Shown: positions 15,952-40,235 of the stretch, one piece after another | Position numbering within the stretch: position 1 is the first letter of the stretch | Layout: each line of letters starts with the position of its first letter | Source: Escherichia phage AV126 | Reading direction: 5' to 3' (one strand) | Sequence record: OR352956.1 | DNA length: 64,000 bases | Program-made: the position numbers and the translations under genes | Notes under the pieces: generated by a model | Seen by the model: only the letters and a program-made list of their open reading frames with translations | Database searches by the model: none | Told to the model about the DNA's origin: nothing

Positions 15952-15993
15952 TTGATTCTTATTCAATAAGGTAAATGATAATCATTCTCATTT
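15952..15993 (+). promoter_or_regulatory. sigma70-like promoter overlapped by Fur-box-like operator
   Basis: TTGATT -35, 17-nt spacer, ATGATA/GATAAT -10 region; operator AAATGATAATCATTCTCATTT (13/14 to 7-1-7 Fur consensus) overlaps the -10. Confidence 0.5.
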
Positions 15994-26983: not shown

Positions 26984-27012
26984 AAGGGGCGCACCAAGCG
27001 CCCTTTCTTTTT
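26984..27012 (+). terminator. rho-independent terminator
   Basis: AAGGGGCGCACCAAGCGCCCTTT + CTTTTTG; ends the PeSL island. Confidence 0.8.
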
Positions 27013-27218
27013 GCCTGAACAATGTTGATAGCTTTCGCCTATGAAAAACCGACACAGAACAAAACTGAATAAATCGCGGTATCGAGCTAATCAACCATCA
27101 AACGAATAACCATACATCCCAGGGCAACAGGCTGTTAGAGAGCTATTTAGAGCGGTTAAAATCGATCTACAACCAACAACAAACCATCAAAAACACCCTT
27201 TTACCTCCTTTCTAGTGC

Positions 27219-27237
27219 AATGATAACCATTATCATC
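27219..27237. promoter_or_regulatory. Fur-box-like palindrome
   Basis: AATGATAACCATTATCATC; 13/14 match to TGATAATnATTATCA. Confidence 0.5.
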
Positions 27238-27580
27238 TACCCATGATTATCTATGCAATATAAGCGCATAATTATAATGTTGATAATAGTTCGCAACAAC
27301 TAACCAACAAACAACATAAAACAATAAGCAAACTAATCATAATCAAAGGAATAATAGCAAGATGATTGATAACGACAAACAATCAAACCATGATGAATAC
27401 TAAGCAAGATAACGATAACACGACAAAACAACCAACTAACGAACAATAACAAACGAAACCATTAAAAGATCAACTATTAGCAAAATAGTGTCTATTGCCA
27501 TAATAGTGACTGAATGAAATCATTACAAAACGAATCATTCCAAGGATCATCATTAGCACGCTACGCCGGACACGTAGCGA

Positions 27581-27708
27581 GCTAATAATAAGCCAACTAC
27601 ACCCCAACAATCATAACCATCGGTGACGGTTATTTCTTGTTACTGCGTAGCTTGCAATAATTGCAAGCGTAATGACGCTTACACTTATTGCGCTGGCTTA
27701 TTATTAGC
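27581..27708. repeat. 14-bp perfect inverted repeat pair flanking ~100 bp rich in palindromes
   Basis: GCTAATAATAAGCC at 27581-27594 and its reverse complement GGCTTATTATTAGC at 27695-27708; internal palindrome CTTGCAATAATTGCAAG (27651-27668); adjacent hairpin GCTACGCCGGACACGTAGC. Confidence 0.55.
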
Positions 27709-27990
27709 ATTATATGTAATTACCAAGATCATAACATTAGCGCAATAACAATAATCATTACAATAATTACATAAGGAAACAATTAGCATAGCAATAATTA
27801 TGGGGGCAATGGGAGGATGATTATCATCATTCCGATACATTGCACACTATGCACATAATAAGATAAAAAGCAATAATCTTGGGGGCGAAATGTTACCGCC
27901 ACAGGCGGGAATGTTGAGCATCTTCTCTTAAACGTAAATAAAATCAGAAAATTCTTGATTTATTTTAGTTTTTATGTTAATAAACGTTTA

Positions 27991-28008
27991 AATAATAATC
28001 ATTCTCAT
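27991..28008. promoter_or_regulatory. Fur-box-like site
   Basis: AATAATAATCATTCTCAT; shares the 14-mer ATAATCATTCTCAT with the site at 15973-15993. Confidence 0.45.
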
Positions 28009-28148
28009 ATAAATAATAGTCTGCTTGTCATGAGCGGGATTAGTTGACATTGTTCCGTCATATGATGAAGTTGCCAAGCCATTGATAAATAAGTGTTTGT
28101 GTGATTTATAATCAAGTGGCCCACCTTGTCGCTACGTTGGCATGAGCC

Positions 28149-28190
28149 TTGCATAAGTCATTGAATACGAATGATAATTATTCTCATTCG
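28149..28190 (+). promoter_or_regulatory. sigma70-like promoter overlapped by Fur-box-like palindrome
   Basis: TTGCAT -35, ~18-nt spacer, GATAAT -10; 21-bp near-palindrome GAATGATAATTATTCTCATTC (13/14 to 7-1-7 Fur consensus) over the -10. Confidence 0.5.
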
Positions 28191-28529
28191 CATGATATTT
28201 GGGAATTGTCGCTGCGTGGACCTGACGGCCCGAAAATTCGCGTTAAGCACTTCTTACGTATGCGCCATGATTTTTGCCATATCATATTGATTCTATTAGA
28301 TATTCTTGCCATGATTGCCATGAAACAGGGTGTCCCGAAATAATCTCTCCCCGTAGATATTTTGGGTTACTTTTTATACAAGAGTGGGGTGTCAAAAATA
28401 ATCGGTATATATGGGATAATTGATAGGAATCCCCTATGATAATTCGATTGTAATTCCCTAAGATTGATCGTATGATGTTGGTGATTGATGATTGCCATGA
28501 AAGATGGCTAACGATGAGAGGAGATTATC

Positions 28530-28898
28530 ATGCAAGAGAGTAAAAATATTCCGTTGAGCAGTGCAGCATTGATTCAATTCTACAAAGCATGGATGGCTGA
28601 TCACTACAGCATGGATCGCACGGAGAATGGACTGTGTTTATGTATTCATCATTTTGTGCGATCTCATCTTATGAAAGATGTGGAGAATCCCCGATGGTAT
28701 GCCGACATAATAGATAGCTTGTTGTTTGAGATGCGTGCTCAGTTCAAAGACGCTGGCATTGATACGTGCGCACCCTTCAACACTGGATATGCGGATTACT
28801 TGATTGAAGTGGAAGATAAAATGTGTCACCTGAATCCACTTCGCATTCAGTGGGTGAAAGATCGCATTGAAGATGCAAATAATGCTTGCATTGAATAA
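28530..28898 (+). CDS. paralogous family A protein, copy 1 (122 aa)
   Basis: GAGAGGAG SD; shares FY..W..GLC..PF..H.N..R..WVKDR pattern with ORFs at 31968, 35294, 38592, 39897. Confidence 0.6.
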   Translation: MQESKNIPLSSAALIQFYKAWMADHYSMDRTENGLCLCIHHFVRSHLMKDVENPRWYADIIDSLLFEMRAQFKDAGIDTCAPFNTGYADYLIEVEDKMCHLNPLRIQWVKDRIEDANNACIE

Positions 28899-28968
28899 AA
28901 ATGTCTGTATGATGTTTGTATAAGATATGCAATACCGCGCATAACAAACAGCTAATGAGGAGATTGGA

Positions 28969-29199
28969 ATGCATAGCATGAAACGCATGAAAATTCGTAT
29001 TGAGAATGATGGTGGTTATAAAGGATTGGCACATGCAAAATTTCCACTTGTGCTGGAAGCTACGGTGGAATACAGTGGGCTTGCTCATGTGCGATTCTCG
29101 AAGATGATGGAAGTGCAGGAATGGTTTTGGGACGAGATAGATGCACGAGAAGGAGAAGATTATGTTTTCTTTCCTCACGAATATGAAATTATCTATTAA
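28969..29199 (+). CDS. paralogous family B protein, copy 1 (76 aa)
   Basis: Shares E.W.W.E....EG.DYVFF motif with ORF 32678..32899. Confidence 0.5.
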   Translation: MHSMKRMKIRIENDGGYKGLAHAKFPLVLEATVEYSGLAHVRFSKMMEVQEWFWDEIDAREGEDYVFFPHEYEIIY

Positions 29200-29211
29200 G
29201 GGTTGTGTGCA

Positions 29212-29451
29212 ATGATCACACCACAACAGAATGAAGCAGCAATGGATCTTCTTGATAGTTTGTATTTCGATAATTGGTACTCTGAATGTGAATGGATGAA
29301 TGTGCAAACTCTGAAAGAGAAGACAAAAGCGTTGATTACAGTAGATCAATTTCTTGCAGAGACGGAAAGAATGAATTATGATATGGCATCTCGCGCACGA
29401 CGCGTTTCCATTTTCAATAAAATGTTAGCATTATGGGGAGGTAGAAAATGA
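29212..29451 (+). CDS. hypothetical protein (79 aa)
   Basis: First ATG of ORF-track ORF 29203 (TTG). Confidence 0.45.
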   Translation: MITPQQNEAAMDLLDSLYFDNWYSECEWMNVQTLKEKTKALITVDQFLAETERMNYDMASRARRVSIFNKMLALWGGRK

Positions 29452-29909
29452 GACAACCATCTATACTGGAAGCGCATGTGCAGTGTGTTGTAGATTATGT
29501 CAAAGAACACTCAAGTTTATTAAATGTAACCTGTGCAGTGCAAAATGATGTAGGTATTGTCTGTGTGCAACATATCTTATCTGAAACTCGTTATGAAGTG
29601 TTTCGTGCCACGTTGTTTGGATGTGATCGGGTGCATGTAAACTTCCTGGACTCCAATTATCGTTATGCTTTAGAAAATATTGATGACTATCTTCCTTGCT
29701 CTCCGACAGGATATGTAATGGTAACAGCAAACGAAGTAACACCGAGCAACAGTGAACGGGAAGCTTTGTTACGGAAGAAAATACGCCAACTGCAAGTGTT
29801 GAATGAAATGCAAGAAGAGATTGAAAAAGAACTAAAAGAAGATTTTGGTATACTTCCAAAAGACGCTTTGAAATGGTATGATGAACTAGGAGGAGAAAGT
29901 TATGAATAA
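29448..29909 (+). CDS. hypothetical protein (153 aa)
   Basis: GGGAGG SD. Confidence 0.55.
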   Translation: MRQPSILEAHVQCVVDYVKEHSSLLNVTCAVQNDVGIVCVQHILSETRYEVFRATLFGCDRVHVNFLDSNYRYALENIDDYLPCSPTGYVMVTANEVTPSNSEREALLRKKIRQLQVLNEMQEEIEKELKEDFGILPKDALKWYDELGGESYE

Positions 29910-30096
29910 AGGAACCACTGTATATTTAGTGACTAAGAACACCCCATGTTGGAATCAGTGCACAACGACTCCATATAAAATCTGTGCAACACTGGAACTA
30001 GCACAACGTGCAGAAGCAGAAGTTGACGCTATGCATTACAGTTATGGGGAGATCATTCCTTTCACTCTGGAACAAGAAGGAGCATACAATGTTTAA
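29902..30096 (+). CDS. hypothetical protein (64 aa)
   Basis: AGGAGGAGAAAG SD. Confidence 0.5.
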   Translation: MNKGTTVYLVTKNTPCWNQCTTTPYKICATLELAQRAEAEVDAMHYSYGEIIPFTLEQEGAYNV

Positions 30097-30547
30097 AGAA
30101 GGCCATGTCTACCGTTTCCAGGATGAGGATTATATGCGACTGTATTCTACCTTTGATAAAGGTATTGCGACTATCATTGGAGAGAATTTTTTCGAGGTGT
30201 TGAGCACTGATACGAATGGTAATATCTTGTCAATGGTTGTAATAGGTATGAGAGATGGTATTATCACTGCTGGTGATGGGGATCGTTACATAATCAATTC
30301 TGCTCATATAGATTATTTTGTTGACGGTGGTGTTCGTGGTGGTCGTGGAAAACCCCAAGAAGAACCTGTTGATACAACAAAAGAAGAGTGGTATGTTGTA
30401 ATGACTGATGACACATGTATTTCTGGATTTGAAAGTTATGAAGAAGCTTTGAAAGAAGCAGCAGAGCATAAAATGGCTAATCCTACAGAAGAGGTTGAAG
30501 TTTATAAACGTTTGGTTGTTGCTACCATCGGCGTATCTTTTGTTTAA
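30089..30547 (+). CDS. hypothetical protein (152 aa)
   Basis: ATG 30089 after GAAGGAG, overlapping previous stop. Confidence 0.5.
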   Translation: MFKEGHVYRFQDEDYMRLYSTFDKGIATIIGENFFEVLSTDTNGNILSMVVIGMRDGIITAGDGDRYIINSAHIDYFVDGGVRGGRGKPQEEPVDTTKEEWYVVMTDDTCISGFESYEEALKEAAEHKMANPTEEVEVYKRLVVATIGVSFV

Positions 30548-30559
30548 AAGGAGAATGTT

Positions 30560-30997
30560 ATGTTTAAAGTTAATGCTGTTTACTGTTTCAAAAGTAAAGC
30601 TGCATGTGAAGCTTTCTCTATGATCTCTGATGAAAATTTCAAAATGGCAGCTTTGATTGAAGGGTCTTGTTTCCGCGTCGAAGATGTTAGTGAATCAGGG
30701 TCTGTTTGCTCATTGACTTTATTGGACAGCGGGGATATTATTGAAGCTGGACAGTATCCGTTCAGAAGTTGGGAGATATTGTTAGCTCGCGGAGAGCGTA
30801 ACTTTTTTATGTGCGTGTCTGCGGGGGAAGTTGTGAAAGAAACTAAGGATGTTTCTGTTTACAATTCTGAATTTATAAGTTATAGTGAGTATCAACATCT
30901 GGAAGGCATTGTTGGTCACTTGTTATCTCTGATTGACATTGAATGTGACTTGCCTGAATCATTGAAAGAAGAGTTGAAAGCATTAGATCTGTTATAA
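30560..30997 (+). CDS. hypothetical protein (145 aa)
   Basis: AAAGGAGAA SD. Confidence 0.55.
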   Translation: MFKVNAVYCFKSKAACEAFSMISDENFKMAALIEGSCFRVEDVSESGSVCSLTLLDSGDIIEAGQYPFRSWEILLARGERNFFMCVSAGEVVKETKDVSVYNSEFISYSEYQHLEGIVGHLLSLIDIECDLPESLKEELKALDLL

Positions 30998-31024
30998 TGT
31001 TTCGCACAACGAAAGGAGAATAAG

Positions 31025-31324
31025 ATGAATCTGACCGAACAGTTACGCCGTATTGCAAAAGAAGCTTCCTTCAACTTCCCTGTTGAAGAAGTGATCGAGA
31101 CATGTTTTGCTGAAGCACGAGCGGGAAACTCTTCAAGAAATTTCACGCCATCTGATTTTGGTCTGGATAACTCCCCTACCCACCCAGGGGAGATCTACAA
31201 TCAGGTGAAGTGGATGGATGAAGCAGTAGCAATTCTTCGTGAGCGTGGGCTTATTGTTTATAAAGAAATGGATCTGAACGGGGCATACGAGTGGATCACT
31301 ATTGATTGGTCGGAGGTGAAATAA
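31025..31324 (+). CDS. hypothetical protein (99 aa)
   Basis: AAAGGAGAA SD. Confidence 0.55.
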   Translation: MNLTEQLRRIAKEASFNFPVEEVIETCFAEARAGNSSRNFTPSDFGLDNSPTHPGEIYNQVKWMDEAVAILRERGLIVYKEMDLNGAYEWITIDWSEVK

Positions 31325-31533
31325 TGGTTACTATCACATTGACAGTTACACAAGAGCAAGCAGAAGAATTACGTGATGCACTGGCATATATGGGACGCGC
31401 TTATTATATGCCTCATAAATCTCAAGATGTTTTTGCTACAGCCGTTGAGAAAGCTTTAAACAAATACCGAGAAACTCATGCCGTTCCTAAAGTATCAGCA
31501 GAAGAGTTTGGCACTTGGCACGAAGTTCACTGA
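31324..31533 (+). CDS. hypothetical protein (69 aa)
   Basis: ATG 31324 after GGAGGTG. Confidence 0.45.
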   Translation: MVTITLTVTQEQAEELRDALAYMGRAYYMPHKSQDVFATAVEKALNKYRETHAVPKVSAEEFGTWHEVH

Positions 31534-31543
31534 GGAGGTTTCG

Positions 31544-31777
31544 ATGAAAGGTAACAAGATGAAAGTTAGTCAAGTGCCGAGCGCATACACTTTGTGGCTT
31601 GCGCGAGCGTTACACCAGACGATCAAAAACCCTAAGAAGCCAATGAAGAGCGGGAAGAAGTTTATGTCTAAGGGCAAAACAACCTTTGGCTTCACTCGTA
31701 TGTCTGTTAAGATGAAAAGACTGGGATACAAGCCAAACTACGCTCGTTACCCTTCCGAATACAACTGGTTTGACTAA
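31544..31777 (+). CDS. hypothetical basic protein (77 aa)
   Basis: ATG 31544 after GAGGAGG; Lys/Arg-rich. Confidence 0.45.
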   Translation: MKGNKMKVSQVPSAYTLWLARALHQTIKNPKKPMKSGKKFMSKGKTTFGFTRMSVKMKRLGYKPNYARYPSEYNWFD

Positions 31778-31790
31778 AAGGAGAAAGATT

Positions 31791-31967
31791 ATGGCTACTT
31801 TTCAACAATTGAAAGATGTTTCACGTTTAGTAAGAAAAATCCGAGAAGCAGACGCTGCTGTGCGGAATGCACTAACACCAGCAGAGCGTGAAGATCTTGA
31901 AGAGGAGGTGAAAACAGCCGAGAATGCTTTTGCTGCGTATCTTTCAACACTGTACACAGGAGGTTAA
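31791..31967 (+). CDS. hypothetical protein (58 aa)
   Basis: ATG after AAAGGAGAAAG. Confidence 0.45.
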   Translation: MATFQQLKDVSRLVRKIREADAAVRNALTPAEREDLEEEVKTAENAFAAYLSTLYTGG

Positions 31968-32282
31968 ATGTCAGAAGAACTTAAAGAATTTTATCAGGCA
32001 TATCATAACTGGCTGTTAGCTGGTGCTCCAGATAATAATCCTTTCTGGCATGATAAAGGGTTATGTAGTTGCCTCTATCTTTGGTCTGGTGGTTATGATG
32101 ACCTAAATTATGAAATGCAAATGCAATTCCGCGAAGCAGGTTTGTCTGAAGAATACCCGTTTGATGATGGGGATTGGTTTAAATATGATTTTGCACAAAG
32201 AAACGGGCTGCTACATTTAAATGCTGCCCGTATAAAATGGGTAAAAGATCATGCTACACAGGAGGATGTGCAATGCCTATAG
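31968..32282 (+). CDS. paralogous family A protein, copy 2 (104 aa)
   Basis: AGGAGG SD; family A motif. Confidence 0.6.
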   Translation: MSEELKEFYQAYHNWLLAGAPDNNPFWHDKGLCSCLYLWSGGYDDLNYEMQMQFREAGLSEEYPFDDGDWFKYDFAQRNGLLHLNAARIKWVKDHATQEDVQCL

Positions 32283-32473
32283 TGTTTGTTTTCTTGGCAA
32301 TTGTTATGGTTGTTCTTTTCGCCGCATGGCTTTGGGATTTTGACCCAGGAGCCGCGCAGCAAAGAGCTACAGACTTGAAAGAACAATGTATTGTGCTCAA
32401 ACATGAACGAAATGCGGAGAAATTTCTTGACCTGGAGTGTGATCGCCTTGTAAGATACAAGCAAGATAAATAA
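32273..32473 (+). CDS. hypothetical membrane-anchored protein (66 aa)
   Basis: ATG 32273 after AGGAGG; N-terminal TM-like IVFVFLAIVMVVLFAAWLW. Confidence 0.45.
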   Translation: MPIVFVFLAIVMVVLFAAWLWDFDPGAAQQRATDLKEQCIVLKHERNAEKFLDLECDRLVRYKQDK

Positions 32474-32487
32474 CTTTTAGGTGCAAA

Positions 32488-32676
32488 ATGGTAATTGAGA
32501 TTAAACTTGAATATGCTGGGGCTGTTGCCTTGATCGCACAAATGCTTGGAGCAAAGATTGAAGAAGTGTATATCAACGCCTGGAGCGTAGAGATTGATGT
32601 TCCTATGGACAACATTGCTAATCGCTTGCTGGTGGCAGAGTGTGAACGCACCAACATAATCTACAAAGGAGCATAA
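32488..32676 (+). CDS. hypothetical protein (62 aa)
   Basis: ORF in co-oriented block. Confidence 0.45.
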   Translation: MVIEIKLEYAGAVALIAQMLGAKIEEVYINAWSVEIDVPMDNIANRLLVAECERTNIIYKGA

Positions 32677-32677
32677 T

Positions 32678-32899
32678 ATGAAAATTAGAGTTTGTGATGT
32701 ATTGGGTTATGTTGGTTTTGAGAATGTTCAGATTCCTTTTGTTGTTGAAGCACATCTTGTTAGTGAGGATATGACAACATTCTTTGTTACGATAGAAGAA
32801 ATGTCCAAAGTTGAGGGATGGGAGTGGTTTGAAGAAGATGTTTGGGAAGGTTGTGATTACGTATTCTTCTCTGACGAAGTGAATGTTCTTGCGGAGTAG
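32678..32899 (+). CDS. paralogous family B protein, copy 2 (73 aa)
   Basis: Family B motif. Confidence 0.5.
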   Translation: MKIRVCDVLGYVGFENVQIPFVVEAHLVSEDMTTFFVTIEEMSKVEGWEWFEEDVWEGCDYVFFSDEVNVLAE

Positions 32900-32901
32900 G
32901 T

Positions 32902-33108
32902 ATGTCTTGTTTTACAAAAGCAGTGTCCATATGTAAGAAACAGTATGAAAGTGATTACGGAATATTTAATATTCCAGTAGATCATACAGTGTATTGTTCA
33001 TGTGGTGGCAGAATGAAGAAAACAGTGATTTATGCGGATAATGGAGATGAACTTGTTCCAGTTATGGTTTGCAAAGCTTGTCATTCTGTTAAAACATTAA
33101 AAGCGTAA
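32902..33108 (+). CDS. hypothetical Cys-rich protein (68 aa)
   Basis: CxC...CxxC arrangement (CSCGG...CKAC). Confidence 0.45.
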   Translation: MSCFTKAVSICKKQYESDYGIFNIPVDHTVYCSCGGRMKKTVIYADNGDELVPVMVCKACHSVKTLKA

Positions 33109-33204
33109 GGAGTCGGGACACCCGACGATTGGAGCTAAAAATTTTGCGTACAACCCTTTCCGCCCAACAGGGGGCGCATCGGGTAAACAAAGAGGAGAGT
33201 TTAT

Positions 33205-33603
33205 ATGAAAAAGATTATCGTAGGTTTATTGTTACTCATTGCATCTCTTGGAACAGCAAATGCATCTCAAGTTTATGAGTGTGTATCAGACGTAGTTGTT
33301 AAAAATCTGAAAGGTGAAGTGATTTCTGGCCCTAAGAAAATGGCTTCTGTTGTCATTAATAAAGACAACTCCTTTATCCTTAAAAATTCGGGTGGTGCTT
33401 TGATGAGCGGTATTCTTCAAAACACAGGAGGAAAGAGTAAAGATGGAAGTTCTATGTACGGTTCACAGCAGTTTATTGGCACTACCGAAGTTGTGATGAT
33501 GCGCACAGAGTATCGAGATACTTTAGCTTGGTTTGCATTTCTAAAAAATGATAAAACAATAACGAATGTTCTTACTCTAGAAGCTGATTGTACGCAACGA
33601 TAA
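33205..33603 (+). CDS. hypothetical secreted protein (132 aa)
   Basis: Signal-peptide-like MKKIIVGLLLLIASLGTANA; GAGGAGAG SD. Confidence 0.55.
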   Translation: MKKIIVGLLLLIASLGTANASQVYECVSDVVVKNLKGEVISGPKKMASVVINKDNSFILKNSGGALMSGILQNTGGKSKDGSSMYGSQQFIGTTEVVMMRTEYRDTLAWFAFLKNDKTITNVLTLEADCTQR

Positions 33604-33612
33604 GGGGGATTT

Positions 33613-34059
33613 ATGACTAAAGTGAGGCATTACGCTGTAAACTGCAACGATGCTTGGCGTTTGTGTCCTGATGATCCTACAGAAGGGACATTTGTAAGAT
33701 ATGAGGATTATAAAGAGTTATCGGATGCTGTGATCGCATTGTTAACTGATATCCGTTCACGTTATCCAGGACAAGATTTCACTTGCCCTCACATCAAACT
33801 TCTTGCTTGTCTGGTAGAAGGTGAGAAAGAAGTGGAAGATGGCTTCAAGCGTGTAGAGTATCAAGGTGAAACTTTAGATGTTCCTGAGTTTGTTAATTAT
33901 ATTGCAACAGATTCGAGTGGCGAGCGTTATGGCTACAGCCATAAGCCAGAGATTCCTGATTGGATTCCCGCTTGGAGATATTCCGTTAGTACCGGAGACT
34001 ATATCTTCCTTGGTGTAGGTAGTAGTAAGGATTGGCGTTTCTCTTTGACAGAGGTTTAA
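33613..34059 (+). CDS. hypothetical protein (148 aa)
   Basis: AAGGGGG SD. Confidence 0.55.
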   Translation: MTKVRHYAVNCNDAWRLCPDDPTEGTFVRYEDYKELSDAVIALLTDIRSRYPGQDFTCPHIKLLACLVEGEKEVEDGFKRVEYQGETLDVPEFVNYIATDSSGERYGYSHKPEIPDWIPAWRYSVSTGDYIFLGVGSSKDWRFSLTEV

Positions 34060-34063
34060 TAAT

Positions 34064-34327
34064 ATGGAAGAAACATTACCAGCAGCATATCGTTTGAATG
34101 ATGAGCGTATTTGGGAGTGGACCGACGTTTCTTGTTTTTACCCTGAAATAGTTCAGTATTGGCGAGCGAAAGGGTGTATTGTGGTTATCAACCCTTGTGG
34201 ACCAGTGGATGAAGATTGCTTGTATCTCGATGGAAAGTGGCACAGTTATTGTCGCTGGCCTTTTGAGTGGATGTGTAAAGAAGATCTCCCAGAGGGTTGG
34301 GAGTATCCAAAAGCAAATAGGAGATAA
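34064..34327 (+). CDS. hypothetical protein (87 aa)
   Basis: ORF in co-oriented block. Confidence 0.5.
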   Translation: MEETLPAAYRLNDERIWEWTDVSCFYPEIVQYWRAKGCIVVINPCGPVDEDCLYLDGKWHSYCRWPFEWMCKEDLPEGWEYPKANRR

Positions 34328-34328
34328 T

Positions 34329-34691
34329 ATGTCTAAAGATTTTGTTGAAGTGTTTGTCAAAGATGAAGAAACTGGTTTAGGCACGGGTTTCATTTGTGAA
34401 GAAACTTTTAAACGTGAACAAGAAAAAGCTATCCTTATGCGAAACTATGATCATGCATTAGAACAATGGAAAAATGCAGAACAAAAATGCAAAAACCTTT
34501 ATGCAGAAAATAGAAAACTACAAGATCAAATGGAGTTGTTAGCTATCAGTTTACGATCTCTCATTTTGGCTGTAGAAGACGGTTTTAAAAATCCAGATGG
34601 TTTTCCTGTGAGCGATATTGAACATGATTTGTATCTTGCTCGTGGTGCTTACTTTTATGTTAAACAGAAGTCTGTAGAAGGAGAGAAGTGA
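34329..34691 (+). CDS. hypothetical protein (120 aa), coiled-coil-like
   Basis: ATG 34329 after AGGAGA (ORF-track start 34179 overlaps previous gene). Confidence 0.5.
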   Translation: MSKDFVEVFVKDEETGLGTGFICEETFKREQEKAILMRNYDHALEQWKNAEQKCKNLYAENRKLQDQMELLAISLRSLILAVEDGFKNPDGFPVSDIEHDLYLARGAYFYVKQKSVEGEK

Positions 34692-34888
34692 TGGAAGAAA
34701 AACTGGAACGTATTATCGAGTTAGCCATGTCTATTGGCTACGACGATTGTTTTCTCCAAACTATTGGAGAAACACAGAACGATTACGACTCTTGGGTGAA
34801 AGAGTTGGAAGAACTCAAAACTTCCTTGATTGCTGACTTTGCTGAAGCAGAGGATAGAGCGGATCGTTACAACTATCTGTGTCGATAA
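34691..34888 (+). CDS. hypothetical protein (65 aa)
   Basis: ATG 34691 after GGAGAGAAG. Confidence 0.45.
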   Translation: MEEKLERIIELAMSIGYDDCFLQTIGETQNDYDSWVKELEELKTSLIADFAEAEDRADRYNYLCR

Positions 34889-34949
34889 ACCTTGACATTT
34901 CTTTTATGTATGGTATACATACATTATCAACACAGATAAGGAGAGAAAA

Positions 34950-35294
34950 ATGATTAAACTTTTATGTGCAGAGTCTTCTGTCGAGTTCCTTAAAGAGGGT
35001 AAGCAGTATCTAGCTTCCCAAGTTATAGATAATCCAGGTTTGTTTTATATTACAGACGAAGAAGGGGATACCCTGTGTATCTCTTTGATTATGGATTGTG
35101 GTCGGTTTCATGTAATTGAGGATGACACTATTCGTCTCTTTGAGGTTTCCTACACAAAAGACAATGGTCCTGTCCGTAAATATCAAATTCCCGCAAAATC
35201 CGCCTTTAACGCATGTGTACGATTAGGTCAAATCTACGGGGACGATAAAGATTGTCGTGAAGACGTGTTTATCAATGTGATCGAGGTAAAATAA
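34950..35294 (+). CDS. hypothetical protein (114 aa)
   Basis: AAGGAGAGAAAA SD. Confidence 0.55.
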   Translation: MIKLLCAESSVEFLKEGKQYLASQVIDNPGLFYITDEEGDTLCISLIMDCGRFHVIEDDTIRLFEVSYTKDNGPVRKYQIPAKSAFNACVRLGQIYGDDKDCREDVFINVIEVK

Positions 35295-35620
35295 TGAAAA
35301 CAAGTAAAGATTTGATGGAGTTTTATAAAATTTATCTAGCATGGATTGATGTTGGTGCTCCTGATGGTAAACCTTTTCGGCGGGATTGTGGTTTGTGTGC
35401 CAACTTGTTCGATTATGTGCACAGAGGTAATTACAACCCCATTATAACAACCTTATCAGATGAAATGCACGCACAGTTTTACCATAAAAGGTTGAATCAA
35501 GGACTCCCTTTCAATGAGAACTACGATGCATATGTCTTAGAGTCAGATGCAGATGCCTGTCACCTGAACGTGGACAGAATTAATTGGGTAAGAGATCGTA
35601 TTGCAGAGGAGGATGAATAA
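35294..35620 (+). CDS. paralogous family A protein, copy 3 (108 aa)
   Basis: Family A motif. Confidence 0.6.
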   Translation: MKTSKDLMEFYKIYLAWIDVGAPDGKPFRRDCGLCANLFDYVHRGNYNPIITTLSDEMHAQFYHKRLNQGLPFNENYDAYVLESDADACHLNVDRINWVRDRIAEEDE

Positions 35621-35847
35621 TGTCGGATTATAACTGGTATGAACTTGAAGCTGTTTGTCAGTTTTATGATTCAATAGTTCTGCGTGATCCAATCTGTCAA
35701 GAATTGAGTCGCCGTGCAAGTGCATTGGCAATCCGTGTTAAAATAAATGGTTGGAACCCAGACTTGGAAAAAGAGTTGGAATTTCTCTTAGAAACAACAC
35801 GTGTCTTCCACAAAGTGTTCCCTGAATGGTTCGAGATGGAAGAATGA
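35620..35847 (+). CDS. hypothetical protein (75 aa)
   Basis: GAGGAGG SD. Confidence 0.5.
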   Translation: MSDYNWYELEAVCQFYDSIVLRDPICQELSRRASALAIRVKINGWNPDLEKELEFLLETTRVFHKVFPEWFEMEE

Positions 35848-36065
35848 TCATGTGGATTGTACGTCTTAAATATGATGGCCCTGATCCTTGGGTGCATAAC
35901 GTTTGCGGTTGTGATTCCGAACAAGCAGCACATAAAGCAGGAAGAGCAGTAAGTGCCTTCTATAATGACAAACCTCTTTGTTTAGAAATGGCAGGTGTGG
36001 TTTGTATGAGTATGTTCGAATACTACTCTTATGAAATCAAAGAACACCAAGGGGAATGGAAATAA
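35844..36065 (+). CDS. hypothetical protein (about 73 aa)
   Basis: ORF; start 35826/35844/35850 ambiguous. Confidence 0.45.
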   Translation: MIMWIVRLKYDGPDPWVHNVCGCDSEQAAHKAGRAVSAFYNDKPLCLEMAGVVCMSMFEYYSYEIKEHQGEWK

Positions 36066-36127
36066 ATCGTTGACAGAAGGATCTGTCTTTGTCATAATCA
36101 TCTCATCGAAACAAAGAGGAGAAAATC

Positions 36128-36541
36128 ATGAAAAAGTTTATTTGCACCCGTTCCACTAACAGTGATATCCTTGTAGGTAAGGTTATCAAAGGAGAACTCT
36201 TCCATGCAAATGGTAAGAAATATATCCTGCTGAAAGATTCTTTCAACGGGGAATATCCGCGCTGCACTTTCTTCAATTACAACACTCCATTTGCTTTAGA
36301 AGGAGATGCTTGGGAATGGGCTGAACTCAATCCTTGTTGTGAGGAAGAAGAATCTATGTTCTTAGGTTTAAACGTTTACCGTGTAGATTACACCATGTGC
36401 GGAGCGGAACATTCTGTTCGCGTAGAAGCCGAATCCAAACTACAAGCACCTTTCAAGGCGGGGTTGACTTTGGGTCATTGTTTGGCAAACATTGAAGATG
36501 TTGTGATCCAAAGAGTTGTTTTAGAGAAAGAGGCTATTTGA
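36128..36541 (+). CDS. hypothetical protein (137 aa)
   Basis: AGAGGAGAAAA SD. Confidence 0.55.
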   Translation: MKKFICTRSTNSDILVGKVIKGELFHANGKKYILLKDSFNGEYPRCTFFNYNTPFALEGDAWEWAELNPCCEEEESMFLGLNVYRVDYTMCGAEHSVRVEAESKLQAPFKAGLTLGHCLANIEDVVIQRVVLEKEAI

Positions 36542-36594
36542 TAGAAGACGGTGCAATATTTAAAATATAAAAATTAACCACAAAGGAGATAGAT

Positions 36595-36894
36595 ATGCAA
36601 GTTGAAGACCTGATCAACATTCTGAATAAAGCCAAAGAGAAAGGGGCTATTAAGGACTGGAAACGTGAAACAAGTGAAGACCTATCTCACTGTTGCCGAG
36701 AATTTTACATCGAAGGTATTGCTGACGATCATTATATTATCGAATGGTATATCAACTTAATGACTCTTAAGCACGGTTCGTTTGAGGTTTGGTTTGATGA
36801 CATTGATGTAAATGGTTTTCATCCTGGCTATAAAATTGCTATGCAGTTATCTTATCGTAGAGAAGTTGTAGCACATTTGGGTTTACATAACTAA
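36595..36894 (+). CDS. hypothetical protein (99 aa)
   Basis: AAAGGAGATAG SD. Confidence 0.55.
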   Translation: MQVEDLINILNKAKEKGAIKDWKRETSEDLSHCCREFYIEGIADDHYIIEWYINLMTLKHGSFEVWFDDIDVNGFHPGYKIAMQLSYRREVVAHLGLHN

Positions 36895-36904
36895 GGAGAA
36901 AAGA

Positions 36905-37228
36905 ATGCAAGCAGTTGTTAACGAAGCTATTATGAACTTATCCTTCTTGTTAGCTGGTTTAGGAGGTGTTCTCATAGGTTTGGCTCTTATCTGGTGTATT
37001 CGTCGATTAATCGGGTACCGACAAAAAGGTGTTTCATGTTTTGTATCTTACAATTTTACAACTGCTTACAGCAATGAGGTTGGATCTGGTAATGCTCAAG
37101 CATTTTTACCAACATATCCTCCTACAGTAGAAGATATTCGAAACTTGGAAGTAGAACTTATGGGACTAGGTGATAACTATACATCTCTAGTTATTCAAAA
37201 TATTTTTCGACTAAAACAGGAGGCGTGA
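36905..37228 (+). CDS. hypothetical membrane protein (107 aa)
   Basis: TM-like LSFLLAGLGGVLIGLALIWCI. Confidence 0.5.
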   Translation: MQAVVNEAIMNLSFLLAGLGGVLIGLALIWCIRRLIGYRQKGVSCFVSYNFTTAYSNEVGSGNAQAFLPTYPPTVEDIRNLEVELMGLGDNYTSLVIQNIFRLKQEA

Positions 37229-37441
37229 ATGAAGGTACATTACCCTCATCCCTTTGATCCTAAAAACAAAGCCGTAATTCTTCGTCAGTGGCAACGGGTT
37301 TGCCGTACTAAATGTCCAATCAATAGCCCACACAATGTAGACAAGGACTATCTTGGGACATTTATTGAATACACTTACATAGACAAAAACAAGCGTAAAC
37401 AACATGTCGAGGAATACTGCTTAAGAGTAGAATGGCTGTAA
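37229..37441 (+). CDS. hypothetical protein (70 aa)
   Basis: AGGAGG SD. Confidence 0.5.
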   Translation: MKVHYPHPFDPKNKAVILRQWQRVCRTKCPINSPHNVDKDYLGTFIEYTYIDKNKRKQHVEEYCLRVEWL

Positions 37442-37454
37442 ATAATAAATACCT

Positions 37455-37482
37455 TGACAAGTGTTTATTCGTTTTGTAAAGT
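37455..37482 (+). promoter_or_regulatory. sigma70-like promoter for serine recombinase
   Basis: TTGACA - 16 nt - TAAAGT, ~30 nt upstream of ATG 37512. Confidence 0.55.
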
Positions 37483-37511
37483 GAGAATACAGCAATGGTT
37501 TAGGAGTGGTT

Positions 37512-38183
37512 ATGAAAAAGTTTGTTGTTTACAGTCGTCTTTCTAAACAGAAAAAAGGTGAGGCACAATATGGTATGGAGAGCCAAGAGAATGATATCCG
37601 TTACTTCTTAGACTCTGTGCCTGATGCGGAAGTTATTGGTCAATTTTCTGAATACTATTCGGGTAAGGGTGATTGGAAGCAACGTAAGGAACTGGTTAAA
37701 GCGGTTGAAATGTGTAAAGCTACCGGAGCAACTTTATTGGTAGCTAAAGTTGACCGCTTGGGTCGTAACAACGCCTCCGTAGCAACTCTTCTAGAAATGA
37801 TCGATGTTAAGATAGCCATCATGCCAGACGCAGATAAAATGGTTATACAGCTTCTGTCTGTTCTGGCTGAACAAGAAGTTAGAGGTATTGCTGATCGTAT
37901 TAAAAAGGGTCTTGCTGTAGCAAAAAGCAAAGGTGTTTTATTAGGCAGTGCTAATCCTAAAACTGCCGCTGCACGTAGAAAAGGAAAAATGGAATACAAC
38001 TCTGTTAAAGCAGACGCTTTTGCAGAGACATTCCGTGAACGCTTGGAGATCCTTAGAGATTTAAATACACCTTACAAAACTATTGCTGAAAAATTCAATA
38101 GTAAGAAAATAGCAACAGCACGTGGTGGTAAATGGGATGCTAAAACTGTTTCTCGTTTGTGTGCCAGACTGAACATTAAATAG
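37512..38183 (+). CDS. serine recombinase (resolvase/invertase family, 223 aa)
   Basis: N-terminal VYSRLSKQ (YxRVS catalytic-Ser motif), VAKVDRLGRN (DRLGR motif), C-terminal HTH-like; own promoter at 37455-37482. Confidence 0.7.
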   Translation: MKKFVVYSRLSKQKKGEAQYGMESQENDIRYFLDSVPDAEVIGQFSEYYSGKGDWKQRKELVKAVEMCKATGATLLVAKVDRLGRNNASVATLLEMIDVKIAIMPDADKMVIQLLSVLAEQEVRGIADRIKKGLAVAKSKGVLLGSANPKTAAARRKGKMEYNSVKADAFAETFRERLEILRDLNTPYKTIAEKFNSKKIATARGGKWDAKTVSRLCARLNIK

Positions 38184-38191
38184 GAGAGGAT

Positions 38192-38614
38192 ATGAAACAA
38201 GAAAATGAATCTGTAGATCACTTAATCATGCTGTCAGCCCTTTTTGCCGGATGGAACGTATTTTTTGAAAATTTGTTCAATTCTGCTACAGATGGTTCCG
38301 ATTTTATGCGCCAGTTTAAACGACGAACTGTTGAGGACTATGCTTTCTATTCAGGTCGGATTGAAAAAGGTTACGAAGATACAAATACAACACTCACCAT
38401 TAAAGTTTTAGATGTGATGTTTAGTGTTATAGATGCTATCGACGAAAGTCTTCCGATCCTAGACAATTGTAATACGAAAGCCTATGTTTACAAAATAGCT
38501 CGTGCTTATGTGTCTGCAAACAGTTGTCTTCTTTCCGCCCAGATTGCCGTGAACAATCTTGCCAACTTGTTCGATGAAGGAGAAACTTTTTATGACAATC
38601 GATTTGAAGTGTAA
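38192..38614 (+). CDS. hypothetical protein (140 aa)
   Basis: AGGAGAGGA SD. Confidence 0.5.
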   Translation: MKQENESVDHLIMLSALFAGWNVFFENLFNSATDGSDFMRQFKRRTVEDYAFYSGRIEKGYEDTNTTLTIKVLDVMFSVIDAIDESLPILDNCNTKAYVYKIARAYVSANSCLLSAQIAVNNLANLFDEGETFYDNRFEV

Positions 38615-38957
38615 GAGGATTCTTTTAGATTTCTATAATAATTGGTTAGAACACCTCCGTCTCTTTCCAAGAGAAAGTGGTTACGCTGATGTTGGCTTAT
38701 GCCGAGGTCTACGTATGTATATAAGTGATGAATTTCGGGCCGAGCATTCTTTAGCATATTCTGTTTATGGTATGCAATTAGCCAGTTTTGAAAACGCTGG
38801 CTTAGATACAACTTTCCCATTTAACACAGCAAAATCTTTTGAGCAAGAGTGTAAGGAAAAACGTTGCATGTTTAATGAAAAACGTGTACAGTGGGTTAAG
38901 GATCGAGTTAAACAACTGGAACAAGAGTTGGATTTCTTCTATGATGAGGCAGAATAA
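38592..38957 (+). CDS. paralogous family A protein, copy 4 (121 aa)
   Basis: ATG 38592 after GAAGGAG; family A motif. Confidence 0.55.
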   Translation: MTIDLKCKRILLDFYNNWLEHLRLFPRESGYADVGLCRGLRMYISDEFRAEHSLAYSVYGMQLASFENAGLDTTFPFNTAKSFEQECKEKRCMFNEKRVQWVKDRVKQLEQELDFFYDEAE

Positions 38958-39229
38958 TGGATAGACAAACCTTAAAAACAATGGCAGATGCCACTAATTC
39001 CCCGTACTTTGAAAAAGTAAGTAAATTGGTAGCTCAAGCCGCAGAGGAAGGATATTATAACATAAACATCCACAACCCAAGTCTTATACTAGAAATGCCA
39101 AGTGATAAGAAGATACAAGAGAGTATCTGTGAAGGTATTGTTAGTTACTGGCGCGAGCGTGGGTGTGGTGCAAACATGGCTTTAGACAGTGCAAACATTG
39201 TAAGATATATAAATATTTCTTGGGGGTGA
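38957..39229 (+). CDS. hypothetical protein (90 aa)
   Basis: ORF, overlapping start/stop. Confidence 0.5.
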   Translation: MDRQTLKTMADATNSPYFEKVSKLVAQAAEEGYYNINIHNPSLILEMPSDKKIQESICEGIVSYWRERGCGANMALDSANIVRYINISWG

Positions 39230-39233
39230 TTTT

Positions 39234-39845
39234 ATGATTCAATGCACTCATATCCAAATTACTTGGAGAGATGAACTTTACCATTTGGGACAATTTACTG
39301 TAGGGGAAACATACCCTATCATTAAACATAATCCTAACATCGCAAACTTTGACAGGATGGTTCTTGTTGAGGACGATCTAGGTCAAACTTATTCTTTAGA
39401 TCTAAAATATCCGTTTTCTTACGGCTACGATTGGATCGTTACTTTTGAAGACGTGGAGGAAAATAAAACAATGAACGAAAAAAATTCTTGGTATTATCGT
39501 TGTGAACTGCCACCAGTAGGTGAAAAGGTTATCTTTGTCCCTGATTTGGAAAGATATTCTTGGGACAGTTCTTATTCTGTTCCTAAAGAAGGCACCGAAG
39601 TTGAAGTTATTGCACATCGCACAACTTCGCATGGTAACGATGTAGCAGTTGTTTTCTGGGATGATGAAGGCGCTGCTTGTGCAGGTGGCTTTGTTGCAGG
39701 TAATTTTGAACCCCTGCCAGATCCTTTGAAGGAGGCAATTTTAGGCGTAGCTTCTTTTGGACTCTCTTACACATCTGCACAAGAGATCGTAGAAGGTATT
39801 TTAAACGGTACCGTTCCAAACGAAATTTTTAAACAGATTAAATAA
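39234..39845 (+). CDS. hypothetical protein (203 aa)
   Basis: ORF followed by terminator-like hairpin at 39851. Confidence 0.55.
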   Translation: MIQCTHIQITWRDELYHLGQFTVGETYPIIKHNPNIANFDRMVLVEDDLGQTYSLDLKYPFSYGYDWIVTFEDVEENKTMNEKNSWYYRCELPPVGEKVIFVPDLERYSWDSSYSVPKEGTEVEVIAHRTTSHGNDVAVVFWDDEGAACAGGFVAGNFEPLPDPLKEAILGVASFGLSYTSAQEIVEGILNGTVPNEIFKQIK

Positions 39846-39850
39846 TAGTT

Positions 39851-39880
39851 GCACCCCGTTCTGCGGGGTGTTATTGTATA
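39851..39880 (+). terminator. terminator-like hairpin
   Basis: CACCCCGTTCTGCGGGGTG + TTATTGTAT. Confidence 0.55.
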
Positions 39881-39896
39881 TGTAAAGGAGGCGCTA

Positions 39897-40235
39897 ATGT
39901 ATTACACTGAAGACTACATATTGTATAACTTTTTTAAAGGTTGGTTGAAATGGGCGGAACAAGCTCCTGTCGGAGATTGTGTTTTTCCTTGGGATTCTCG
40001 TCAAGGCTTGTGTCGTTGTTTGGAAGATTGGCTTATAACCACAAACTACAATTCAGAAACTAAGAAATCTACATCAAACAGATTAAAAATGTTATTTGAA
40101 GAAGATGGTTTAGATCCAATTTATCCTTTCGGTGCTGAAAGCTTCCACAATGGTCTTTTTCTTGGCACTCAACATTATGACAAAGATCGCGTAGATTGGG
40201 TAAAAGAAAAGGTAGCACAGTATGAATGGGGCTAA
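39897..40235 (+). CDS. paralogous family A protein, copy 5 (112 aa)
   Basis: ATG 39897 after AAGGAGG; family A motif. Confidence 0.55.
   Translation: MYYTEDYILYNFFKGWLKWAEQAPVGDCVFPWDSRQGLCRCLEDWLITTNYNSETKKSTSNRLKMLFEEDGLDPIYPFGAESFHNGLFLGTQHYDKDRVDWVKEKVAQYEWG

Follow-up and report, generated by a model that had tools for sequence, protein, structure and literature searches.

Five divergent paralogs of the phage protein family PHROG 2510 in Escherichia phage AV126, with a variable first gene slot

Five paralogous genes and the variable slot

The stretch of DNA analysed here, called the window, comprises 64,000 nucleotides of Escherichia phage AV126 (record OR352956.1). This work concerns five small genes of one paralogous family, numbered copy 1 to copy 5 from left to right, which are spread over some 12 kb of it. 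AV126 is a wastewater isolate and has one of the broadest host ranges of its collection (PMC10844046). Its genome is 149,254 bp long, and the region is 96-98% identical to many genomes of the genus Phapecoctavirus, i.e. phAPEC8-like E. coli myoviruses of ~150 kb that belong to the subfamily Stephanstirmvirinae. From 28.5 to ~41 kb the + strand carries a tight series of ~39 small genes, and the five family genes, all part of this block, are annotated as 'hypothetical protein' in every deposited relative. Ten larger genes of the block were scanned, and with the exception of a serine recombinase (37512-38183) all of them fall in PHROGs of unknown function. The positions of the five genes and of the associated features are listed in Table 1.

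Table 1. Family genes and associated features of the locus (positions in the window)
Feature	Position	Strand	Remarks
Copy 1	28530..28898	+	122 aa; first gene of the rightward block, variable slot; PHROG 2510, E 1.5e-20
Hypervariable core of copy 1	28599..28845	+	codons 24-105, ~250 nt; conserved segments 5' (to ~28597) and 3' (from 28846)
Copy 2	31968..32282	+	104 aa; canonical type, strongly conserved; PHROG 2510, E 6.4e-29
Copy 3	35294..35620	+	108 aa; canonical type, nearest of the five to the family consensus; PHROG 2510, E 2.8e-31
Copy 4	38592..38957	+	121 aa; degenerate type; PHROG 2510, E 2.2e-26
Copy 5	39897..40235	+	112 aa; degenerate type; PHROG 2510, E 1.1e-26
Strong terminator of the preceding unit	26984-27006		precedes the non-coding stretch
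Non-coding stretch, ~1.5 kb	27007..28529	.	upstream of copy 1, after the terminator of the preceding unit; from sequence and map of open reading frames, with promoter-like sites
Terminator-like hairpin	39851..39871	+	between gene 39234-39845 and copy 5; equivalent site annotated as terminator in phage Schickermooser

All five open reading frames (ORFs), which had been listed in a first-pass annotation made from the sequence alone, were found at the expected starts on the + strand with lengths of 104-122 amino acids (aa). Each has an ATG start preceded by a Shine-Dalgarno sequence (GAGGAG, AGGAGG, GAGG, AGGAG and AAGGAGG for copies 1-5, in that order). The start of copy 3 overlaps the stop codon of the upstream gene (ATGA), and the upstream gene 38192-38614 extends into copy 4. 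The protein encoded by copy 1 is an exact match to WPK38217.1 of phage AV126, and copies 2 and 3 are likewise exact matches to AV126 proteins.

The five proteins were aligned over their full length, and the alignment has an invariant L, F, G-L-C, F, P-F, R and W-V. The shared pattern described earlier (FY..W..., GLC, PF, H.N..R..WVKDR) is essentially right, with two deviations: its 'H' is Met in copy 4 and its 'N' is Asp in copy 5. In pairwise BLASTP among the five, E-values were as low as 1e-16, and the only non-significant pair was copy 1 and copy 5. Each copy was also scored with a hidden Markov model (HMM) built from the other four. This leave-one-out procedure gave 51-82 bits for the copies, whereas none of 1000 shuffles per copy scored above 9.7 bits, so the proposed family stands well clear of shuffled controls. 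All five match the PHROG 2510 profile over their whole length (E 1e-20 to 3e-31). A search for a sixth copy, using the five-copy HMM against the six-frame translation of the whole 64-kb window, returned exactly these five, the next match having E > 1. The paralogs share 19-38% identity (BLASTP), and comparisons between paralogous copies show saturation at synonymous sites. The five ORFs are true paralogs, and the earlier suggestion of old duplications is borne out.

The genes of the block were compared with six relatives of AV126, five of them close and the sixth, phiWec181 (L010), much more divergent. Ratios of non-synonymous to synonymous substitution (dN/dS) were calculated by the Nei-Gojobori method, gene-wide and by region, for each slot and each allele class. 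In the five close relatives copies 2, 4 and 5 together show dN/dS of ~0-0.1. Copy 2 has 98-100% aa identity (dN 0-0.004 vs dS 0.09-0.36), copy 4 has 98-100% (dN 0-0.007 vs dS 0.03-0.09; dN/dS at most ~0.1) and copy 5 has 97-100% (dN 0-0.013 vs dS 0.02-0.23; dN/dS ~0.05-0.08). Purifying selection on these three copies is strong. It is more relaxed on copy 3, with 87-99% aa identity and dN/dS of 0.25-0.5 in the same five genomes, and with 78% identity and dN/dS of 0.44 when compared with phiWec181.

The best match of copy 1 has 50-65% aa identity in all six relatives, and the identity does not exceed 66% to anything in 50,697 phage records. Using blastn, the 5' segment of the gene was found to be 95-98% identical in L001, L002, L007, L008 and L009 up to positions 28597-28599. 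On the 3' side identity resumes at 28842-28846, at 91-95%, in L001, L002 and L007. In L010, which is more distant, identity drops to 69% in the 5' flank and is 89% in the 3' segment. Since identity breaks at 28598 and resumes at 28846, the first 23 and the last 17 codons are conserved and a core of ~250 nt has been replaced. In the relatives every additional tandem copy begins with this conserved 5' segment.

The relatives have 5, 6, 8 or 9 family genes each. Slot 1 accounts for one or two of the extra copies, arranged in tandem, another slot is found ~750 bp downstream of copy 3, and phiWec181 has dispersed copies in addition. Among very close relatives the number of tandem copies at slot 1 varies from 1 to 3, and these copies are old, distinct alleles, 45-66% identical to copy 1 of the window. 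Within allele classes dN/dS is 0.05-0.5, the central regions reach at most 0.71, and no comparison exceeds 1. Two allele classes are common to phiWec181 and the close relatives at dS 0.05-0.29, compared with dS > 1 for the neighbouring genes, which points to lateral exchange of family cassettes.

The first-pass annotation had attributed the divergence of the five copies to diversifying pressure and had named dN/dS as a check on the family. That calculation yielded no value above 1, gene-wide or by region. For copies 2-5 (dN/dS 0-0.5) the idea of diversifying pressure is not supported, and it holds solely for slot 1, where it takes the form of allele replacement and change of copy number. The variation consists in the swapping of old alleles and copy-number change at one slot, rather than in rapid point substitution in all five genes.

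Mosaicism extends to further genes of the block, in relatives that are otherwise 96-100% identical. Gene 29448-29909 is 57-58% identical in four of the six relatives, gene 33613-34059 is 75% identical in two, gene 35844-36065 is 58-61% identical in three, and gene 29902-30096 is absent from four. Allele replacement is a general property of the block and is most extreme at slot 1 of the family.

Predicted fold and occurrence in other phages

Residues are numbered as in copy 3 throughout. An AlphaFold2 model of copy 3, based on an alignment of 46 sequences, has a predicted local distance difference test score (pLDDT) of 94 and a predicted template modelling score (pTM) of 0.86. It consists of five helices (5-19, 34-43, 50-64, 77-85 and 93-107). 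The same five-helix order was predicted for copy 5, the most divergent one (pLDDT 94.2, pTM 0.88). PDB sequence-profile searches with three alignments gave no match, and the fold as modelled is without an experimentally characterised relative and belongs to no solved inhibitor, sponge or anti-restriction family.

The five copies have no match above the curated cut-off in Pfam-A or NCBIfam, the best being HNH_2 with 15 bits vs a cut-off of 21, and no Pfam family is shared among 55 diverse members. The weak Pfam matches obtained (HNH_2, Imm45, YaeQ and ARMC9_LisH) were rejected, being below the cut-off and inconsistent between copies. The proteins lack hydrophobic N-termini and have an isoelectric point (pI) of 4.5-5.3 (family median 5.6, with 13% of the domains above 8), from which they are predicted to be cytoplasmic, soluble and mildly acidic. 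Hydrophobic N-terminal extensions occur in 4 of 188 family proteins, where start-site calls are a possible cause.

Conservation was determined from 212 aligned domains sharing just ~30% identity. C35, P72, F73 and R95 are found in 100% of these domains, W17 in 98%, G33 in 97%, L34 and W98 in 96%, F10 and Y11 in 95%, and N92 and F62 in 94%. Somewhat lower values were obtained for Q61 (84%), E57 (82%), Y80 (80%, plus 17% F), H90 (77%, plus 12% Y) and E83 (74%). The aromatic and aliphatic residues among them follow helical repeats and probably form the core. The polar set, i.e. E57, Q61, Y80, E83, H90, N92 and R95, is located on helices 3, 4 and 5 and in the loop before helix 5.

E57 and Q61 tend to be lost jointly (odds ratio 35, p 7e-16, a statistic that ignores phylogeny), and in fusions of two domains the one without E57/Q61 is often the N-terminal one. 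Copies 1-3 keep the polar set (in copy 1 E57, Q61, Y80, H90 and N92), and the corresponding residues are M57, S61, F80 and M90 in copy 4 and R57, L61, F80, G83 and D92 in copy 5. By these residues the five copies divide into a canonical (1-3) and a degenerate (4 and 5) type, mirroring the fusions.

PHROG 2510, the catalogued family of phage proteins that holds all five copies, has the related PHROGs 6418, 27059 and 2176, all labelled 'unknown function'. With clustering at 50% identity, a profile search without word index found 1995 clusters at E <=1e-3, 1020 of which have E <=1e-10. Using tblastn with copy 3 as query, 627 places were found in 258 phage records. The carriers are Stephanstirmvirinae with 3-9 copies, as well as N4-like, T7-like and T1-like phages and one jumbo phage, mostly with one or two. 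The family is common in virulent phages of Proteobacteria, the hosts being Escherichia, Klebsiella, Salmonella, Erwinia, Pectobacterium, Rhizobium, Achromobacter, Delftia, Burkholderia, Ralstonia, Xanthomonas and Pseudomonas.

The position of the gene was recorded in several of these phages. In an Enquatrovirus genome of the N4 species the family gene comes third among the ORFs counted from the left end, and in the T7-like phage RSB1 it is ORF5, upstream of a gp0.7-type kinase. In the T1-like phage Sf12 it is found among small genes adjoining helicase and nuclease genes, and in two metagenomic phage contigs of 40-45 kb it is near the head of a rightward series of small ORFs. Overlapping tandem pairs and triplets occur in unrelated phages, and in many of the proteins two or three copies of the domain are naturally fused.

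Four 'Campylobacter phage' records of ~146 kb (A150, A145, C3 and A110a) have three family places each, and B15, of the same MG0656xx series, is ~97% identical to this E. coli phage region. The Campylobacter jejuni host label of the MG0656xx records looks doubtful.

Outside phages, the sole plasmid match is a phage-plasmid, and no nucleotide match was found in 5,426 complete E. coli genomes. The C-terminal motif, used as a degenerate DNA pattern on 185,579 species genomes, gave one chance match, in a search of low sensitivity that finds three loci in viral contigs. A word-indexed homologue search with 40 diverse domains returned 8 close matches, with no informative fusions among them. The family appears to be confined to phages.

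The literature on PHROG 2510, N4 gp3 and Stephanstirmvirinae anti-defence yielded no function, structure or publication for PHROG 2510, and we found no description of the multi-copy arrangement, the slot-1 cassette or the canonical/degenerate split. Atd1, an anti-defence gene reported for Phapecoctavirus, presumably encodes a MazG-like enzyme, which we take to be unrelated to this family.

Upstream region and neighbouring genes

Copy 1 had been described as the first gene after a Fur-regulated promoter region. It is indeed the first gene downstream of the non-coding stretch of Table 1, according to the ORF map and to the annotation of a 98%-identical relative, and it belongs to a run of small same-strand genes of unknown function that spans 16 kb. 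Regulation by Fur is not supported. Allowing up to 3 mismatches to the 19-bp Fur consensus, no site was found upstream of copy 1, and the sole such site in the window is at 15971. Two sites having 14 of the 19 consensus positions (hand count), at ~27988 and ~28166, both form part of a repeated motif, ATAAT[CT]ATTCTCAT. This motif occurs 4 times in the window (15978, 27995 and 28174 on the + strand, 58538 on the - strand) vs 0.21 expected by chance, and the copies at 27995 and 28174 both precede copy 1 in the non-coding stretch. The motif could represent a promoter or operator of the phage, or else a weak Fur box.

The non-coding stretch is A+T-rich and contains short direct and inverted repeats. 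The genome records of several relatives start inside it, at ~27700-28170 of the window, and a physical genome end or terminal-repeat boundary may therefore be situated in 27007-28529. The stretch is probably either an early promoter region or a genome-end region.

The serine recombinase, which lies in the early block of a virulent phage, has a Pfam Resolvase N-terminal domain (E 5e-18) and falls in PHROG 125, DNA invertase. In several relatives a gene of the block is labelled 'methionine ABC transporter ATP-binding protein'. In phAPEC8_ev052 this label is carried by the equivalent 672-bp recombinase gene, where it looks like a mis-annotation. A 'goF mRNA metabolism modulator' label, present in two relatives, was considered as an identity of the family and rejected. 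It belongs to the same early block and sits on the neighbours 30089-30547 and 30560-30997, which fall in unknown-function PHROGs. These two adjacent genes both match PHROG 3710 and show weak mutual similarity (phmmer E 0.05). The 3' end of copy 2 is overlapped by a 66-aa ORF (32273-32473), which encodes a hydrophobic segment resembling a membrane span.

A segmental duplication as the origin of the regular 3.3-kb spacing of the family genes has little support, as paralogy among the neighbouring genes is limited to one pair (28969 / 32678). The members of this pair, 28969-29199 and 32678-32899, encode 76 and 73 aa with 37% identity (E 1e-10 to 1e-11) and are found shortly downstream of copies 1 and 2, respectively, which hints at one old duplication of two genes. 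The second of them is labelled 'protein ea8.5' in one relative.

Possible roles of the family

Judged from sequence and context, the role that we tentatively consider most likely is that of a host-directed early binding module, serving host take-over or counter-defence. The setting fits a host-interaction or accessory role, as the genes are surrounded by the small unannotated genes of an early block, and in unrelated virulent phages, too, family members are found in early regions. That dN/dS is well below 1 in every slot argues for real, selected genes. The left-end position, the solubility, the restriction to phages, the selection, the fusions and the jointly lost polar set make small early binding modules the best fit to the data.

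On this proposal five soluble, mildly acidic proteins of ~105-120 aa, each a single five-helix domain, would be products of the early block at the left end of a virulent phage and would act where phage and host meet, by stoichiometric binding that serves host take-over or counter-defence. They would probably work as dimers, as suggested by the many tandem fusions of two or three domains and by the overlapping tandem pairs and triplets in unrelated phages. A functional site is suggested by the complete conservation of C35, P72, F73 and R95 at ~30% identity and by the joint loss of E57 and Q61. The residues E57, Q61, Y80, E83, H90 (or Y), N92 and R95, together with C35, may form a recognition site for a target common to Proteobacteria, either a conserved host or defence protein or a small molecule of nucleotide type.

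The paralogs would differ in specificity or role. Copies 1-3 would retain the site, and copies 4 and 5, having lost E57/Q61 like the degenerate half of many fusions, could be partner subunits or bind another ligand. Slot 1 may be kept variable by recombination between conserved gene ends, by which allele cores are swapped and the tandem array grows or shrinks. It appears arms-race-like because the allele is at most 66% identical to any phage record, the flanks are 91-98% identical and the copy number is 5-9. Dimerisation, the spatial clustering of the polar residues, the binding of a ligand and the host-directed role are what we infer from these data.

Several known systems are comparable in part. 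The immune-signal sponges Acb2, Tad1 and Tad2 are small, soluble, oligomeric proteins found in many unrelated phages, usually as a single copy, and the residues of their pockets are conserved where the remainder of the protein diverges. The PHROG 2510 proteins resemble them in being small soluble proteins of many unrelated phages with conserved residues in otherwise diverged sequences, but the family is multi-copy and has no sequence or fold similarity to the solved sponge structures.

T7 Ocr, T7 Gp2 and T4 AsiA are early stoichiometric inhibitors of host proteins, small and acidic with ~100 aa. The family shares with them the early-region genes for small acidic proteins of ~100 aa, whereas it is not a strong DNA mimic, differs in fold and is far broader (~2000 clusters at 50% identity). 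Anti-restriction DNA mimics of the Ocr/ArdA type have a pI of ~4 or lower and an elongated mimic fold, compared with pI 4.5-5.3 and no fold match here. The R-x(4-6)-H motif on a four-helix core, typical of HEPN-type helical RNases, was not found either.

Gene 'accordions' are known from virus-host arms races, e.g. the amplification of poxvirus K3L and of T4 tifA. As in these cases, a host-interaction candidate changes its tandem copy number between very close relatives; unlike them, the tandem copies are old distinct alleles swapped by recombination and not recent identical amplifications. Anti-defence is a reasonable hypothesis.

A number of observations weigh against a host-directed binding role. 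The PADLOC-DB defence profiles gave no match at E up to 1, and no sequence or fold likeness was found to solved anti-defence, sponge and inhibitor structures (Ocr, ArdA/ArdB, Acb2, Tad1/2, Gad and Acr, where present in PDB); the role is therefore argued from context. Ordinary purifying selection acts on four of the five copies, which do not show the positive selection at single sites that typifies direct antagonists of host proteins. Early expression is deduced from where the genes lie and by comparison with T7 and N4. Instead of lining a binding site, the conserved polar residues may cap helices and form buried salt bridges, and the co-loss of E57 and Q61 was counted irrespective of phylogeny.

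A more specific version of the host-directed role is possible, though we hold it to be rather doubtful. The family would here be a large, hitherto unrecognised counter-defence family of new fold, in which dimers of one canonical and one degenerate subunit would take a conserved immune signal out of action, by sequestration or destruction, or would neutralise a conserved defence or host protein. The paralogs would cover different targets, and slot 1 would track host immunity in the field.

The invariance of Cys35 and Arg95 in all 212 domains, at ~30% identity, would also suit a small enzyme in which these two residues, aided by Glu57, Gln61, His/Tyr90 and Asn92, act on a nucleotide, an RNA end or a protein, for example by cleaving or modifying an immune signal or a host RNA. 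A set of Glu, Gln, His or Tyr, Asn and Arg is typical of phosphate- and ribose-handling sites. The co-loss of E57 and Q61 and the fusions of an active with a degenerate domain resemble pseudo-dimeric enzymes, with copies 4 and 5 as catalytically dead partners. Yet position 90 is Tyr, Phe, Met or Trp instead of His in about a quarter of the domains, the 100-aa all-helical domain matches neither the fold of a known enzyme nor a catalytic family of Pfam or NCBIfam, and five to nine enzyme paralogs per genome would be unusual. An enzymatic role is thus considered unlikely.

Some of the data used above can be read as a role inside the phage, where the proteins would assist phage transcription, replication or assembly as cofactors or adaptors and their multiplicity would reflect several phage partners. 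Four slots are under purifying selection, the family is kept across very different virulent phages, and the member in the N4 species directly follows the first two early ORFs. The products of these two, N4 gp1 and gp2, are transcription cofactors (PMC4496689). However, the transcription and replication machineries of the carriers (T7-like, N4-like, T1-like and large myoviruses) are unrelated, so that a common phage partner is improbable, and a copy number of 1 to 9 with freely swapped slot-1 alleles is the behaviour of accessory rather than core genes. We regard a phage-internal role as distinctly unlikely.

It is very improbable that the copies are redundant leftovers of duplication in a recombination-prone region, without distinct individual functions. 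The block is mosaic in general (the alleles of 29448, 35844 and 33613 vary) and copy number differs between close relatives, as such leftovers would predict. But slots 2-5 are each kept in the five close relatives with dN/dS ~0-0.5, the paralogs, at 19-38% identity, are too old and diverged for redundant recent copies, and both predicted folds (copies 3 and 5) are intact.

PHROG 2510 is a catalogued yet functionally uncharacterised family, large and with an orphan fold, whose members behave as accessory early genes. The early regions of phages contain many dark-matter families, among which it is distinguished by its breadth, the novel predicted fold, the pairing of canonical and degenerate domains and the swapped first slot. 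Having ~100 aa, a confident model and no solved relative, the family is a clean target for structural genomics. Even with a mundane role two tempting readings are corrected, as point-mutational diversifying selection was not seen and control by Fur is not supported.

If the host-directed binding role is true, a single profile would serve to pick out a candidate module for host interaction or counter-defence from hundreds of phage isolates, among them N4 and several genera used in therapy and biocontrol, i.e. Phapecoctavirus, Justusliebigvirus and N4-like, T7-like and T1-like phages. The slot-1 cassette provides a natural experiment, with near-isogenic phages that differ mainly in this allele and can be compared on the same host panels. 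If the counter-defence version is true, the swapped first slot may contribute to the very broad host range reported for AV125 and AV126 (PMC10844046).

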